Shown here piece by piece: positions 735 to 52,133 of a stretch of 64,000 bases of DNA. This DNA comes from Acidobacteriota bacterium (GTDB taxonomy: Bacteria > Acidobacteriota > UBA6911 > RPQK01 > JAJDTT01), in contig CBDCJH010000002.1 in assembly GCA_965217775.1 (NCBI GenBank), forward strand, positions 2,464,001 through 2,528,000. The letters run 5' to 3'. Positions within the stretch are counted from its first letter, which is position 1. Each line of letters starts with the position of its first letter. The notes beneath the pieces are model-generated. The model ran no database searches. It had not been told where the DNA came from and saw only the letters and a list, made by a program, of their open reading frames with translations. A program made the translations under genes and the position numbers.

Positions 735-1549
735 GCGGACCGCTGCTGGAGGGCCGGAACATCACGGTCCGGTTCGGACGGGGTGCGGACGCGTTCGAGG
801 CCGTTCGCGATGCCAGCCTCTCCCTCGATCCGGGTGAGATCGTGGGCGTGGTTGGCGAGAGCGGCAGCGGCAAGACTACCCTTGCCAGGGTACTCGTTGG
901 CCTCCAGCCGGCGGCCTTTGGAACGGTGTTGTGGGAAGGCAAGCAGGTCGCGGAGCCCGACTCGCGAGAGCGCTTCCCCAAGAACGAGCGCTGGAAGGTC
1001 CAGATGGTCTTCCAGGACCCGTATTCGTCCCTCAACCCCCGGATGCGGGCGTGGTCGGCGGTGGCGGAAGCCCTCCAGGTATGGCGCGGGCTGACGCGCA
1101 AACAGGCCCAGGCAGAGTCCTTTTCCCTGCTTCAATCCATCGGCATCGACGAATCCCAGGCCCGAAGGTTTCCCAAGGCACTTTCGGGCGGCCAGCGTCA
1201 GCGGGTCAGCATCGCCCGGGCCCTGGCACCCGAACCGAGGGTCCTGATCGCGGACGAGCCCACGTCCGCAATCGACCAGTCGGCCCAGGCCCGCCTCGCC
1301 AACCTGCTTCGGCGGCTGCGGTCCGAACGGAACCTGGCCATCCTCTTCATCTCCCATGATTTGGCGCTGGTGCGCTACATGACCTCCCGGGTGCACGTAA
1401 TGCGCCGGGGACGCATTGTTGAGGCGGGACCGACGGAGACGGTCTTGCGGAAGCCACGGCATGCGTACACGCGCGTCCTGCTGGACTCGTTGCCGGGACG
1501 CGGCGGGAAGGGAGCGGCGGCTTTCTTGCCGCCGATCCGGGGGGGTTAG
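731..1549 (+). CDS. Oligopeptide/dipeptide ABC transporter ATP-binding subunit (OppF/DppF-like)
   Basis: ATG at 731 overlaps upstream TGA; GESGSGKT Walker A, FQDPYSSLNP, LSGGQRQR, IADEPTS; C-terminus runs into a REP palindrome. Confidence 0.92.
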   Translation: MSGPLLEGRNITVRFGRGADAFEAVRDASLSLDPGEIVGVVGESGSGKTTLARVLVGLQPAAFGTVLWEGKQVAEPDSRERFPKNERWKVQMVFQDPYSSLNPRMRAWSAVAEALQVWRGLTRKQAQAESFSLLQSIGIDESQARRFPKALSGGQRQRVSIARALAPEPRVLIADEPTSAIDQSAQARLANLLRRLRSERNLAILFISHDLALVRYMTSRVHVMRRGRIVEAGPTETVLRKPRHAYTRVLLDSLPGRGGKGAAAFLPPIRGG

Positions 1550-1652
1550 GGGGGACGGCAGTCCCCCCTCTACACTTGCCGCCTGCCGAAGCAACACCGG
1601 AGAGCAGGCGGCAAGAAAACCGCCTGTCCCAGTGGGCGACAAGAAAGTCGCC
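1516..1652. repeat. REP-like palindrome cluster (GGCGRCAAGAAAGYCGCC / GGGGAC..GTCCCC family), left of IS110
   Basis: ggcggctttcttgccgcc 1516-1533, gggggacggcagtccccc, ggcggcaagaaaaccgcc, ggcgacaagaaagtcgcc; related copies at about 3353, 3381, 7399, 11790, 13658, 34549, 44749, 52010, 59085, 63185. Confidence 0.85.
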
Positions 1653-1668
1653 TGTACCCTTTAGGGGA

Positions 1669-1837
1669 CTTCACCCACGGTGGGTGAAGAGGGCCATCCG
1701 GCCGGGAGCGACCCTAAAGTCCCCGCGCCTGAGAGCACCTGGAGGGGATTCGTGCCCCGGCCGGTAGCCGCGATGGAGAACCGGTGGAAAGTCAGCGTCC
1801 TAGAACAGCCAGTACAGGAACCGATCCGAATCGCGGC
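1669..1837 (+). ncRNA. Putative IS110 bridge RNA (5' hairpin, target-binding loop, donor-binding loop)
   Basis: Hairpin cttcaccca/tgggtgaag 1669-1689; stem ccggccggg/cccggccgg (1698-1764) enclosing guides AAAGTCCCC and GGAGGGG that match the target; stem gccgcgat/atcgcggc (1767-1837) enclosing guides GGTGGAAAGTC and GTACAGG that match the donor junction. Confidence 0.8.
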
Positions 1838-1872
1838 GGCCCAACATCCATTTAAGCACTCGGAGGGTCGGG

Positions 1873-3120
1873 ATGAAACAAGATCAATGGTTTGTGGGGG
1901 TCGATTGGGCCTCCCGGTCGCACCAAGTCTGCGTGCTGGACGCGCAAGGCACTTGTCAGGGACAGCGCAGCTTCCCGCATAGCGGTTCGGGCCTCGCCCA
2001 GATGGCCGACTGGATTCTCGAGCAGACGGGAACGAGTGCGGAGGCCGTCTCGGTGGCGATTGAAGTGATCAACGGTCCCGTAGTGGAGTTCCTGATGGGT
2101 CGGCGTTTTGTCGTCTATACCATCAATCCGACACAGTTGGATCGGTTCCGTGACCGCTTCTCGCCGGCCGGAGCGAAGGATGACCGCCGCGATGCCCGGG
2201 TGCTGGCCGACGCCCTGAGAACCGACGGCAATCGCTTGCGACGGCTGGGTCCCGTCGACTCTGAGGTGATCGAGCTGCGCGAGTACTCACGACTGGCCGA
2301 CCAGTTGATCCGCGAGCGGACCCGGCTGGTCAACCGTCTCCACGATCAACTCTGGCGCTACTATCCGCAGTTCCGGGACCTCAGCAAGAATCTCGCCGAG
2401 CCTTGGGTGATGGAAGTGTGGAAGCTGGCCCCGACGCCGGAGGATGCCCGGAAGCTGCGCCCGGTCCGGGTCGCCAAAGTGTTGAAACAACATCGGATCC
2501 GCCGAATCGATGCTCCCGAGGTCCTGCGTCTCTTGCGGGTGCCCTCCTTCCCCCTGGCCGCCGGCACCGTCCAGGCCGCCAAGGTTCACATCGCCAGCTT
2601 GGCGGAGCTCCTCGCTCTGGTCCAGCGCCAACTCCGTGACCTCTCTCGTGAGAGTGCGCGTCTGATCCGGGTTTTGGAGAAGCGGTTAGAGTCGGCGGCG
2701 GGGCCCCAGGGCCCGAGGCAGGACGTGGCGATCCTTGCCTCCCTGCCCGGGGTCGGCACCAGGGTTCTCGCCACACTACTCTCGGAAGCCTACGATGCGG
2801 TGCAACGAAGAGACTATGCCGCCTTGCGTTGTCTGTGCGGGGTCGCCCCCGTGACCCGGCGCTCCGGCAAACACACCCGCGTGGTGCGCCGCCAGGCGGT
2901 TCACCCTCGTCTGCGCGAGGCGGCCTATCATTGGGCCCGGGTATCCGCACAACACGACGCCACCAGCCGAGCCAAATACAAGGCCCTCAGGGAGCGCGGC
3001 CACGGCCATGCGCGGGCCCTGCGGTCCGTGGCTGACCGTCTGCTGGGGGTGGCCTGCACCATGTTGCGAAACCAGACGATGTTCGATGAGAATCATGCGA
3101 GACAGCGCCGTGCCGCTTGA
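1873..3120 (+). CDS. IS110-family DEDD recombinase/transposase
   Basis: N-terminal VGVDWA, E in IEV, KDDRRDA, LPGVG, and GVAPVTRRSGK with the putative catalytic Ser; 415 aa. Confidence 0.95.
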   Translation: MKQDQWFVGVDWASRSHQVCVLDAQGTCQGQRSFPHSGSGLAQMADWILEQTGTSAEAVSVAIEVINGPVVEFLMGRRFVVYTINPTQLDRFRDRFSPAGAKDDRRDARVLADALRTDGNRLRRLGPVDSEVIELREYSRLADQLIRERTRLVNRLHDQLWRYYPQFRDLSKNLAEPWVMEVWKLAPTPEDARKLRPVRVAKVLKQHRIRRIDAPEVLRLLRVPSFPLAAGTVQAAKVHIASLAELLALVQRQLRDLSRESARLIRVLEKRLESAAGPQGPRQDVAILASLPGVGTRVLATLLSEAYDAVQRRDYAALRCLCGVAPVTRRSGKHTRVVRRQAVHPRLREAAYHWARVSAQHDATSRAKYKALRERGHGHARALRSVADRLLGVACTMLRNQTMFDENHARQRRAA

Positions 3121-3342
3121 TGTAGATCCGGCCCGAGGTTCGCTCCAGGCTCCGCCGTGCGCGACCGCGCCTGGGGCTCGAGTGCGAGCCCGCCTTGGCG
3201 AGATCGGTCCGGATCCGGTTCCGTCCTGGGATCTAGCCGCCGTCGTCGAGCCGGTGGGAAAGTGGGAAACATTCCCATGTTTTCCAATTTTCCACGGGCT
3301 CCTGGCTCCTCCCGTGCCCCCTTGATAAAAGGTGGGAAGTCC

Positions 3343-3402
3343 CCTCCCAGTGGGCGACAAGAATGTCCCCCCTCCCAATGGGCGGCAAGAAAGCCGCCCC
3401 TC
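3343..3402. repeat. REP-like palindrome cluster, right of IS110
   Basis: cccagtgggcgacaagaatgtcccccct and cccaatgggcggcaagaaagccgcccct in tandem. Confidence 0.85.
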
Positions 3403-3443
3403 CAGTCGCCCCTCCGGCCACTCCTCATCGACCGGCCTTTACT

Positions 3444-4274
3444 CTACACCGGGCGGATCCGGATGTTCTTCCAGCGGCACTTGGCGCCGGTCGGCCAGCT
3501 CTTTCCGCCGTGGACCTGGACCGCGATGCTGCCGGGTTGGCCGATGCGGTTCACGATCTCCTGGCGGTTGTCGACGTACTTCTGGTTGGTGGTGGTCGGC
3601 CCGTCGAACTCGCAGATCTTCAGGCCGTTGATCCAGGTGGTGACGTGCGGTTCGGTTCCGCTGATGAGGACCCGGGCCGTGTTCCAATCGTCAATCTTGT
3701 AGGCTTCGATGAACTCCTCCGGCGTGCAGGACGAGATCAATCCGGCTTCCTCCAAGGAGCGGCCTCCGATGGGCGTGAGACGAACCAATCGTTGGTCCTG
3801 ATCCAGGATCCCGTTGACCTCGAAGGTTGCGCAGTTGAAGCCGAAGGTCCCTTCTCCGTAGAGGAACCCCATCTTGCCGTTGTCGTGATAGTCGACCATC
3901 ATCTGCACGCACTGGCCCTTGTCGTTGCTGCGCAGAAAGAGCCCCGAGCAGACCCCCCAGTCCGGTTTGATGTCGATGGAGAGTTCAAAGTCCATGAACT
4001 TCTCGTCGGTGAGCAGGATGCCGCCGTTGCCCGAACCGGGGGGATCCTGCTGACCCGTGATGGTCCCATCCTCGACGGCCCACTGCCCACCCGTACCATG
4101 ACCGATCTTCTCCGGATTGGTGTGCCAGCCATTCAGTGAAACCCCGTCGAAAAGGGGCTTCCACTCGGATTGGGTTGAAGGGGCGCAACCCAGCGCCGAG
4201 AGTGCGGGAATGAAGCTGGCGCCCGCTGCGGTTCGAGACACGTTTTCTATGAAACGACGGCGATCAATCTGCAT
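3444..4274 (-). CDS. DUF1080 / 3-keto-disaccharide hydrolase family protein, Tat-exported
   Basis: DRRRFI Tat motif, LFDGVSLNGW, WAVEDG, SGLFLR, IAVQVHG, WKNIRIR. Confidence 0.88.
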   Translation of the reverse strand: MQIDRRRFIENVSRTAAGASFIPALSALGCAPSTQSEWKPLFDGVSLNGWHTNPEKIGHGTGGQWAVEDGTITGQQDPPGSGNGGILLTDEKFMDFELSIDIKPDWGVCSGLFLRSNDKGQCVQMMVDYHDNGKMGFLYGEGTFGFNCATFEVNGILDQDQRLVRLTPIGGRSLEEAGLISSCTPEEFIEAYKIDDWNTARVLISGTEPHVTTWINGLKICEFDGPTTTNQKYVDNRQEIVNRIGQPGSIAVQVHGGKSWPTGAKCRWKNIRIRPV

Positions 4275-4860: not shown

Positions 4861-6537
4861 GTGGTAGACACCTCAGCAAATGAGTCTCGTGACGCCGAGT
4901 CGGAGACAGGGAAAGCCCGCGCCAGGTTTTTTCGGGTGACGAAGCGAGCGAAGGAAGCGGCCACTCGGTCCGCGGAAAAGACTCGTGATCGGGCGGCACG
5001 GGTAGCGGCGGGAGCCAAGAATGCTGCGACTCGGTCCGCGGAAAAGACTCGTGACGGGGCGGCGCGGGTTGCGGACGAGGCCAAGGACGCCGCCGCCTGG
5101 TCTGCCGAAAAGGTTCGCGTCGGCACGGCTCGGGTGACGGAGGAAGCCATGCACGCAGCCAATTGGTCCACCAAAAAGACACGGGTTGGGACAACCCACA
5201 TCGCCGAGGGAGCGAAGGATGCGGCCACTCGGTCCGCCGAAAAGGGCCGCGAGGGGGCGGCACAGGTCGCAGACGGAGTCAAGGACGCGGCCGCCTGGTC
5301 CGCCGAGAAGGCACGGGTTGGGGCAACCCACATCGCCGGGGGAACGAAGGATGCAGCCACTCGGTCCGCCGAAAAGACCCGCGAGGGGGCGGCACAGGTC
5401 GCGGACGGAGTCAAGGACGCGGCCGCCTGGTCTGCCGAGAAGGCACAGGTTGGGGCAACCCACATCGCCCAGGGTACTAGGGATGCAGCCGGTTGGTCCG
5501 CCGAGAGGGCTCGCGACGGAGCGGAACAGGTTGTAGAGGGAGTCAAGGACGCGGCCGTCCGGTCCGCGGAGAAGGCTCGTCAAGGGGCTACGGCGGGGCT
5601 GTCCGTTACTCGCTCTTATGGTGCGCCGGTCATCGCCGGTGTGACGGCCGGCGTCTTGGCCGTCTCCGAGAAGGTAAGGGTGACAGATTCCTTCCAGCAG
5701 ATGTTGGCGATTATGCGCGACCCGACTCCGTTCTGGGACGCTTACGGTCACCTTTCGCGCTTTTCACTCAATCTCGACTGGGCGAACTTGGACCCGACGA
5801 AGTATTTGTACGCCGGGACACGGGGCACCTCGCGGGGTCTGGTTGAAGCACAGAGGGTCTGGGAGACGATCCCCGAACAGATCCGGATAGCGGGGCCTGA
5901 GGCCACGGCGAAGTACCTGGAGGGCAAGGACTGGAGCCACATCCGTGCATACAGCGAGGGCGGCAGTCACTCGGCGTCCAATGGCTTGTTCGAAAACTCC
6001 TCCGTGAATCGCGCACGGGGCAGCGATCTAATGACGCCGAGGGAGCTGGAAGCGGCGCAACGGATCCTGCAGAGCGACGCCTTTCACGCGACGCTCCTGG
6101 AGACGGCAAAATGCGCCTTGGAAGGGGCCTTGACCGCCGCGGCGATAGCAGCGGTGATGGCCGTGTTGGAGTACGGGCTCCAGTACCAGAGAAGAGAGAT
6201 AACGGAAGGCGAACTATACCGGGCGATCGGCAAGTCCATCATGGCCGCCGGAATCAGCGGCGCGGCCGTTTCGGGACTTTTGGCGGCGTTGGCGATGGCG
6301 TTTCCGGCAACGGTCCCGGTGATGTCGTTCCTGCTGGTCCCATTGATGGTGATCGGCTTTTCGGTCCTGGGCTTGCGGCTGGCGCGGCTGGGCAAGGGCT
6401 GGTATGAGGTGTATCTAAGCGAACAGCCGCTCAGGCCACTGGCACTTCAGTATTGGCTGGCGAACCAGGCAAGGGCCACAGCCAACTACGTCGGTACGCT
6501 GGCGAGACGGCGTCTGGCCGAAGAAGCCGGGAGGTGA
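4861..6537 (+). CDS. Protein with 22/44-aa amphipathic repeats, a central HNH-like motif and a hydrophobic C-terminus
   Basis: About 9-10 repeats of KDAA(T/A)(R/W)SAEK; DWSHI...GG...N......VNRARG; several hydrophobic segments near the C-terminus. Confidence 0.75.
   Translation: MVDTSANESRDAESETGKARARFFRVTKRAKEAATRSAEKTRDRAARVAAGAKNAATRSAEKTRDGAARVADEAKDAAAWSAEKVRVGTARVTEEAMHAANWSTKKTRVGTTHIAEGAKDAATRSAEKGREGAAQVADGVKDAAAWSAEKARVGATHIAGGTKDAATRSAEKTREGAAQVADGVKDAAAWSAEKAQVGATHIAQGTRDAAGWSAERARDGAEQVVEGVKDAAVRSAEKARQGATAGLSVTRSYGAPVIAGVTAGVLAVSEKVRVTDSFQQMLAIMRDPTPFWDAYGHLSRFSLNLDWANLDPTKYLYAGTRGTSRGLVEAQRVWETIPEQIRIAGPEATAKYLEGKDWSHIRAYSEGGSHSASNGLFENSSVNRARGSDLMTPRELEAAQRILQSDAFHATLLETAKCALEGALTAAAIAAVMAVLEYGLQYQRREITEGELYRAIGKSIMAAGISGAAVSGLLAALAMAFPATVPVMSFLLVPLMVIGFSVLGLRLARLGKGWYEVYLSEQPLRPLALQYWLANQARATANYVGTLARRRLAEEAGR
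4920..5590 (+). repeat. Intragenic tandem repeat with 66-bp units alternating in a 132-bp period
   Basis: gcNgccactcggtccgccgaaaag at 5221 and 5353 (offset 132); gtcaaggacgcggccgcctggtc repeated. Confidence 0.85.
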
Positions 6538-52003: not shown

Positions 52004-52133
52004 TGGGAGGGGGGACATCCCTGTCCCCCTCTTCATCCCCGGCGCGAAACCGGCGGCTGGAAAGGTAGTGGGAGGGGGGACATCCCTGTCCCCCTCTTCA
52101 TCCCCGGTGCGGAACCGGCGGCTGGAAAGGTAG
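52004..52133. repeat. 65-bp tandem repeat x2 containing a REP palindrome
   Basis: tgggaggggggacatccctgtccccctcttcatcccc...ggaaaggtag twice. Confidence 0.85.

Follow-up and report, generated by a model that had tools for sequence, protein, structure and literature searches.

The question raised by this locus is whether an insertion sequence (IS) of the IS110 family, found near the start of a 64,000-nucleotide stretch of an Acidobacteriota genome (GenBank assembly GCA_965217775.1, contig CBDCJH010000002.1, positions 2,464,001–2,528,000; hereafter the window, in whose numbering positions are given), carries a legible targeting RNA, and which sites that RNA would recognize. A first-pass annotation, made from the letters alone, had described an intact, probably active element with a CC core and a bridge RNA programmed against the host family of repetitive extragenic palindromic (REP) sequences. 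We compared the three copies of the element in the host genome (6.43 Mb, 2 contigs, 62.3% G+C) with related elements and with empty sites, and conclude that window 1653–3342 is very probably an intact bridge-RNA insertion sequence of the IS110 group.

The element, its guides and the sites they match

The element comprises 1690 bp with CC on both sides and consists of a left end (LE, 220 nt), a transposase gene (1873–3120) and a right end (RE, 222 nt). The left junction reads AAAGTCG-CC-TGTACC (1644–1658) and the right junction GGTGGGAAGT-CC-CCTCC (3331–3347). The element opens with TGTACCC (1653), the first five bases of which, TGTAC, form the right donor half (RD); it closes with GGTGGGAAGT-CC (3342), and CCTCC opens the right flank. 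There are no terminal inverted repeats, and the insertion is conservative, with one extra core dinucleotide (two filled/empty pairs, described below). The features concerned are listed here.

1644–1650, plus strand: left target half (LT), AAAGTCG; loop end and 3′ arm of the REP-like hairpin GGCGAC-AAGAAA-GTCGCC
1651–1652, plus strand: CC core, left copy; a 2-bp CC duplication in filled relative to empty sites
1653–1872, plus strand: LE, non-coding, encoding the predicted bridge RNA; identity between copies starts at 1653
1716–1724, plus strand: left target guide (LTG), AAAGUCCCC (AAAGTCCCC in DNA); same sense as LT plus core, pairing with the bottom strand
1739–1747, plus strand: right target guide (RTG), CUGGAGGGG, (CU)GGAGGGG; its last 7 nt (1741–1747) are complementary to CC+CCTCC (7/7)
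1748–1749, plus strand: candidate target-loop handshake, AU; complementary to donor positions 7 and 6 (T, G; U·G wobble)
1786–1794, plus strand: left donor guide (LDG), GGAAAGUCA; 7/9 to GGGAAGT+CC
1810–1818, plus strand: right donor guide (RDG), (CA)GUACAGG; GUACAGG (1812–1818) is complementary to CC+TGTAC (7/7)
1819–1820, plus strand: candidate donor-loop handshake, AA; unpaired with target position 7 (G at copy A, C at copy B)
1873–3120, plus strand: IS110-family RNA-guided transposase, 415 aa, with a ribosome-binding site GGAGGG at 1862–1867
3121–3342, plus strand: RE, 222 nt including the core, delimited by sequence comparison of the copies
3334–3340, plus strand: left donor half (LD), GGGAAGT, read from the sequence and by guide comparison
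3341–3342, plus strand: CC core, right copy, from filled versus empty comparisons
3343–3347, plus strand: right target half (RT), CCTCC, read from the sequence and by guide comparison
3348–3420, plus strand: two REP-like units directly downstream, with unoccupied near-targets at 3362 and 3390

The encoded protein contains the Pfam domains DEDD_Tnp_IS110 (1.4e-36) and Transposase_20 (7.9e-16) and scores 181.5 bits against the NCBIfam equivalog NF033542, “IS110 family RNA-guided transposase” (cutoff 140). A phmmer search with the single protein against solved structures gave no match at E 0.001; a profile of 13 homologues reached IS621 (8wt6_A, E 8e-19) and ISCro4 (E 2e-17), in each case across both domains. 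Residues D11, D104, D107 and S331-G332 align to D11, D102, D105 and S241-G242 of IS621 and are invariant in the 13 homologues, as is E64, which was placed by its motif (AIEV) and adjoins the CIEA motif of IS621 (E60). Approximately 90 residues that are extra relative to IS621 sit between the two aligned blocks. The element had been called an IS621-type ortholog; it does belong to the IS110 family and has a predicted bridge RNA, but it is only a remote relative of IS621 that is reached by profile alone.

The guides were read in the register of the family, in which left guides lie directly 5′ and right guides directly 3′ of a distal stem. Their orientation is as in IS621, with left guides in top-strand sense, pairing with the bottom strand, and right guides antisense; all four guides take in the core (PMC11208160). 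The LTG matches the site of the window copy (copy A) at 8/9 positions and that of a second copy (copy B) at 9/9; the match within the LT of copy A is 6/7, with position 7 being G in the site and C in the guide. The mismatches of the LDG fall at LD position 3 (an internal A for G) and at the second core base. Every string quoted in the first-pass annotation was recovered at its coordinates, namely AAAGTCCCC at 1716–1724, GGAGGGG at 1741–1747, GGTGGAAAGTC at 1783–1793 and GTACAGG at 1812–1818. The third of these, which matches 3331–3341 at 10/11 positions, had been taken as the left donor guide; the 11-mer is present, but the family register shifts the guide to the 9-mer 1786–1794, which matches at 7/9 and has one internal mismatch.

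As a chance control, 20,000 dinucleotide-preserving shuffles of 1653–1872 were scored: 12 gave a target pair of at least 15/16 (the level of copy A), two reached 16/16 (the level of copy B) and 124 gave a donor pair of at least 14/16, but not one combined the two kinds of pair.

The guides also covary with target and donor among homologues, in line with what the earlier reading had anticipated. The set examined comprises 22 insertions of 12 variants. Of the 21 sites whose right flank is visible, 19 match the RTG at 7/7 over core plus RT and the remaining two at 6/7; the RDG reaches 7/7 at 21/22. For the LTG, at least 7/9 positions of LT plus core match at 15/22 sites in the standard register; five further sites reach 8–9 when read one base further 3′ (+1 register), and one stays at 6. 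A permutation test on nine distinct guide pairs, from which the insertion without a visible right flank was excluded, scored the true assignment at 134.9/144, the unique best of 362,880 assignments; the variants are related, so this rank is not a probability, and the diagonal is clear. The variants have widely different targets: AAAGTCC-CC-CCTCC, ACAGTCC-CC-CCTCC, AAAGCCG-CC-CCTCC, GTGGACG-CC-TCCCC, CGGCGTA-CC-CAGCA, CGGCGCA-CC-CAGTG and GGGGTC-CC-TTTTC. The donors fall into three classes (GGGAAGT, GGGGAGT and GGAGAGT), each with a matching LDG, and the window's variant, with A for G at position 3, is the sole exception. Two relatives that lie outside the covariance model described below fit as well when read by eye: their LTG, UGCAUUC, pairs to CGCACTC of their own target with two U·G wobbles, and their RTGs pair to CC+AGACC or CC+AAAGC. 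The target-loop handshake base, directly 3′ of the RTG, is A in 12/12 variants and donor position 7 is always T; by analogy with IS621, for which PMC11208158 describes such a contact, 1748–1749 may have a handshake role.

Where the LTG of a variant ends in CCCU, the stretch of target shared by its two target guides is 3 nt long instead of 2 nt. These variants occupy sites that are one base “short”, which for one of them is confirmed by an empty site with 5 C.

Copies, empty sites and the host hairpins

The three copies of the element in the host genome are copy A in the window, copy B, which is 100% identical to it over element positions 1–1588 and is then interrupted, its last 113 bp (96% identical) being displaced 2.46 kb further on, and copy C, which is 82% identical. 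Copy B, as had been expected of further copies, has the same ends. Its flanks, AAAGTCC-CC-TGTACC and GGGAAGT-CC-CCTCCTATCC, indicate that its target was AAAGTCC-CC-CCTCC, which is perfect for both target guides (9/9 + 7/7). The same locus is empty in a genome of the same genus, where flanks that are 93% identical enclose AAAGT-CCCCCC-TCCTATCC, with 6 C in the empty against 4+4 C in the filled allele. The empty sequence is AAAGTCCCCCCTCC, and the predicted empty target thus exists in a sister genome. A second pair sets a variant from that sister genome against an empty site in the host genome of the window (flanks 100% identical), with 5 C empty against 3+4 C filled. Both pairs indicate conservative insertion with one extra CC, and they support the CC core of the first-pass annotation; CC is the core in the element and in all 14 variants examined.

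The RE of copy B is split by a 2.46-kb insertion (contig 2, 4641958–4644421) with terminal inverted repeats CTGCCCTTTACCCACA and TGTGGGTATAGGGCAG and an apparent 8-bp duplication, ATCTAGCC. The insertion encodes a 415-aa transposase with DDE_Tnp_1 and Tnp_DNA_bind domains and is IS4-like. Both IS110 ends persist around it, and the composite could in principle move as a unit.

At the occupied sites, LT plus core provides the loop end and the 3′ arm of a short hairpin of the sequence given above or of variants thereof. The hairpin at LT (−6.5 kcal/mol) has a stem that terminates at the CC, and the predicted stem terminates at the core at 10/10 sites of the window's clade. Hairpins of this type (6–8-bp stem, G[GC]G[AG]C-N5-7-G[TC]C[GC]C) number 894 in the genome by this loose pattern. 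Two 14-mers with one mismatch to the perfect target, AAAGTCGCCCCTCC (the type occupied by copy A) and AATGTCCCCCCTCC, have 17 and 29 copies in the genome, respectively. Within the window, the REP-like targets to which the first reading had pointed are real, lying at 3362 (1 mismatch to the 14-mer), 59093 (2) and 59127 (1); further near-targets lie at 3390 and, on the minus strand, at 52006, 52071, 44691, 13652 and 11786. On this evidence the phrase “programmed against the host REP family” is apt, and such targeting would explain why REP-like hairpins are insertion hot spots in the genus.

The REP-like hairpins often stand in tandem units of approximately 30 bp, often followed by CCCTCC, as seen at 3343–3420, 52006, 52071, 59093 and 59127 and genome-wide. 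In two species, an IS110 copy occupies one and the same REP unit of the same intergenic array (window 1600–3450). These elements share approximately 80% protein identity and have different LTGs, each of which fits the local REP variant (GCCGCC versus GTCGCC); this could reflect a hot spot that was hit twice or the replacement of one variant by another.

The predicted bridge RNA, the expected circle junction and alternative readings

The structure of the predicted RNA was examined in an alignment of the last ~205 nt of the left end from 12 distinct variants, the proteins of which are 52–100% identical to the window protein. The structure tested has 35 pairs in six helices; RNAalifold pairs within the guide segments were excluded from it because these columns are invariant or are the guides themselves. 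Its main parts are the following.

1669–1689, plus strand: 5′ hairpin with a 9-bp stem and a CGG loop, from folding
1697–1765, plus strand: target-binding stem-loop; basal stem 1697–1709 with 1754–1765, distal stem-loop 1725–1738
1767–1837, plus strand: donor-binding stem-loop; basal stem 1767–1774/1830–1837, inner stem 1778–1781/1823–1826, distal stem-loop 1795–1809

In the target stem-loop an internal loop surrounds the small distal hairpin (1725–1738), and the donor stem-loop is of the same design. Across the 12 variants, 93.8% of cells are in standard pairs compared with a shuffled mean of 85.1%, and the observed value was reached by 0/500 shuffles; when the 3′ partners were shifted by 1–3 columns, only 29–45% were paired. 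Compensatory (two-sided) changes are present at 11 of the 35 pairs. In the basal stem of the target stem-loop they affect 4/12 pairs, with 98.6% of cells paired, and in the distal stem of the donor stem-loop 3/4 pairs. The left-end fold that homologues had been expected to reveal is thus supported by compensatory change. A covariance model built from the 12 rows matched exactly three copies in the host genome, at 1692–1842 in the window, and no orphan RNA; this structured region stops 31 nt before the ATG. Among 151 genomes of the phylum the model matches four, and three of the matches, in two genomes, belong to elements outside the model (proteins 37–41% identical), each directly upstream of a transposase gene. 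In the minimum-energy fold of the window sequence, some pairing occurs between the C-run of the LTG and the G-run of the RTG, and the case for the RNA is carried by covariation, not by folding energy.

Two further motifs lie at the element's extremities.

1655–1660, plus strand: −10-like hexamer TACCCT, 2 nt into LE; TACNNT is found in the left end of every variant
3322–3327, plus strand: −35-like hexamer TTGATA, 15 nt from the element end; TTG is found at the same distance in the RE of every relative

When the ends are joined with one CC kept, TTGATA and TACCCT stand 17 bp apart, exactly as first noted. The −10 motif overlaps the right donor half, and its conservation is consequently not independent evidence. 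A promoter scan of the integrated sequence gave no match, consistent with the IS621 model, where the circle is the main source of expression (PMC11208158; PMC13626964).

The comparisons show that the first RNA loop carries a left guide that is the same as the left target half plus CC and a right guide that is the complement of CC plus the right target half, and that the second loop reads the joined RE-CC-LE junction likewise. Insertion adds exactly one CC, at the 3′ base of a host REP-like hairpin, and relatives with different guides occupy correspondingly different sites. From the biochemistry and structures of IS621, the element would be expected to excise as a circle, at the junction of which the 17-bp-spaced hexamers would form a promoter for both the bridge RNA and the transposase gene. 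Strand exchange at the CC core, first of the top and then of the bottom strands, would be carried out by a recombinase tetramer with D11, E64, D104, D107 and Ser331 as its putative catalytic residues, again as in IS621.

The junction sequence AAGTC(G/C)CCT allows several registers at both ends when taken by itself, and variants with an LTG ending in CCCU read equally well as CT, the crossover dinucleotide typical of IS621 and its close orthologues. With a CT core the element would span 1654–3345 and its empty site would be AAAGTCGC-CT-CC. We regard this as highly improbable and rejected it, because the IS621 register predicts 4 and 3 C in the two empty sites in which 6 and 5 C are observed, because the junctions of two more distant relatives have only CC in common (TA-CC-TG/GT-CC-CA and CA-CC-TG/GT-CC-CA), because the RTG and RDG end in GG in 12/12 variants, and because the empty site that it predicts has only 2 copies in the genome compared with 17 for AAAGTCGCCCCTCC. 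Next to no weight can be given to the possibility that the LE matches are DNA-level subterminal repeats bound by the transposase rather than RNA guides. It is true that a 170-nt contig from an RNA library (1667–1836) cannot prove transcription: a contig from a DNA run starts at the same base, which marks this boundary as an assembly artefact, not a transcript end. However, compensatory changes preserve the helices around the motifs, which is to be expected of an RNA but not of repeats bound by a protein; the motifs have the orientation seen in IS621, same-sense on the left and antisense on the right; and the mechanism of the family has been shown biochemically (PMC11208160).

The reading of 1653–3342 as an intact bridge-RNA element with a CC core has several observations weighing against it. 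The single-sequence fold is not exceptional (z −1.2; also −1.6), no Rfam family matches 1400–3600 at E up to 1 (which is uninformative), the HMMER alignment is offset by a few residues around E64, and the LE of 220 nt is not longer than the RE of 222 nt, although a longer LE is a tendency of the IS110 group and not a requirement. The −10 hexamer agrees with the consensus at only 3/6 positions, and the joined promoter (8/12) falls below the scan threshold. The LDG has A opposite C at donor position 3, where 11/12 variants match, and mismatches of this type are reported in the IS621 paper to be poorly tolerated. The donor-loop handshake base, which pairs with target position 7 at 12/12 sites of six distant variants (G-C, C-G, U-A), is an A that faces C or G and is unpaired at 10/10 sites of the window's clade. 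Neither the RE-CC-LE circle junction, for which a search had been suggested, nor an empty allele of copy A was found in the assembled contigs of four of 22 public runs. The derived LDG mismatch, the unpaired handshake base, the lack of perfect free targets (the 14-mer AAAGTCCCCCCTCC has no free copies in the host genome), the missing circle junction and the splitting of copy B by the IS4-like insertion would all be accounted for if this were a genuine bridge-RNA IS110 element whose present variant is crippled or dormant in its host. We consider dormancy unlikely, if far from negligible. The identity of copies A and B over 1588 bp at two unrelated sites indicates that the variant moved recently with the LDG mismatch already present; no damage is seen in the open reading frame (ORF), in the catalytic residues, at either end or in any helix; and the 17 and 29 copies of one-mismatch targets include the type of site that copy A itself occupies. 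Of the original phrase “intact, probably active”, the first word holds for the ORF, ends and helices. As to the second, these sequence features incline us, with reservations, to suppose that the element is currently active.

Contig “skips” over the element were considered as excision products and rejected: they start or end in REP units, have short sides (20–25 nt) and often carry other letters between these, and are read as other REP copies. Contig depth cannot rank the parts of the element.

Known bridge systems, distant relatives and the surrounding sequence

The element resembles IS621 and IS622 (ISCro4) in having a DEDD RuvC-like domain and a Tnp domain with a serine nucleophile, an LE-encoded bridge RNA in which target and donor loops follow a 5′ hairpin, a 14-nt site read by 7+2 left and 2+5 right guide positions around a 2-bp core, a REP hairpin as its natural target, a −35-like hexamer in RE and a −10-like hexamer in LE that would be joined in the circle, and a candidate target-loop handshake base complementary to donor position 7. 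It differs from IS621 in its length (415 aa versus about 326), in its core (CC, not CT), in the unpaired donor-loop handshake base of its clade, and in having an LE and RE of practically equal length; its host is one of the Acidobacteriota with 62% G+C, unlike the enterobacterial hosts of IS621 and IS622. In IS621-like elements the second core base is described as an “almost invariant” T, which a main-chain amide reads (PMC11208158). Insertion tied to a GC-rich hairpin is also reported for ISPpu10 and ISPpu9 of Pseudomonas putida. Elements of the IS1111 group (seekRNA) have a DEDD transposase and RNA-guided site choice in common with the present one, but their RNA lies downstream of the transposase gene and they have subterminal inverted repeats, whereas here the RNA lies upstream.

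The element is of a kind that is already known: the NCBI model names the protein an RNA-guided transposase, large surveys predict bridge RNAs in 85.7% of IS110 elements (PMC11208160), and no new mechanism is involved. Its CC core, its natural series of guides and the differences in register count as variants of this kind. The phrase “CC core” was not found in the eight papers searched that mention IS110 or “core dinucleotide”, although the supplementary tables of the surveys may well list such cores. Tentatively, and with slightly less than even confidence, we suggest that this Acidobacteriota clade is a natural lineage of CC-core bridge recombinases, with C as the second core base where IS621-like enzymes read T, in which the RNA tolerates a 2- or 3-nt overlap of the target guides and, in the subclade of the window's element, works without a paired donor-loop handshake. 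A CC core differs from the CT and GT cores used so far in bridge editing, and an enzyme that requires or accepts CC would widen the set of addressable cores. If the suggestion is correct, the clade also offers naturally reprogrammed guides for the study of specificity, with four left guides that differ by 1–3 bases within one genus. The locus is in any case a clean and fully dissectable natural example of a bridge-RNA element outside the Enterobacteria with verified empty sites, and for annotation its exact ends, target and RNA can be read from the sequence.

Two relatives show more complex arrangements. In one, the right end lies approximately 2.3 kb past the transposase stop, so that the element measures about 3.8 kb and includes passenger DNA. 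The other has three IS copies within a larger repeat, which terminates in the IS's own left target in inverted orientation (GGCGTCCAC); this has the appearance of an IS that inserted into the terminal repeat of a different mobile element and is copied together with it.

Read from the sequence, the donor is flanked only by an inverted repeat of approximately 5 bp. At the joined ends this repeat, AAAGG...CCTTT (3328–3332/1658–1662), brackets a 15-nt donor site; it is also present in several relatives and resembles the 2–3-bp subterminal inverted repeat reported for the IS110 group. One further feature lies inside RE.

3248–3301, no strand assigned: palindrome with arms of 25 nt

The arms (GAGCCGGTGGGAAAGTGGGAAACAT and its complement) reach a complementarity of 84% in copy A and of 96% in copy B; the sister-genome variant has the palindrome too. 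In sequence the arm is similar to the donor end and to the LDG (GGTGGGAAAGT), and two distant relatives have comparable hairpins, of the form GGGAAAC...GTTTTCC, in their long left ends.

The element is preceded by a gene for an ABC-transporter ATPase (605–1549) and followed by a gene of the 3-keto-disaccharide hydrolase family on the minus strand (3444–4274). Beyond the latter, 4861–6537 on the plus strand contains a 558-aa ORF, the N-terminal half of which consists of tandem repeats of approximately 20 residues (...KDAA-RSAEK-R-GA-...); a non-repetitive domain and hydrophobic segments follow the repeats, and the opposite strand is open over them.

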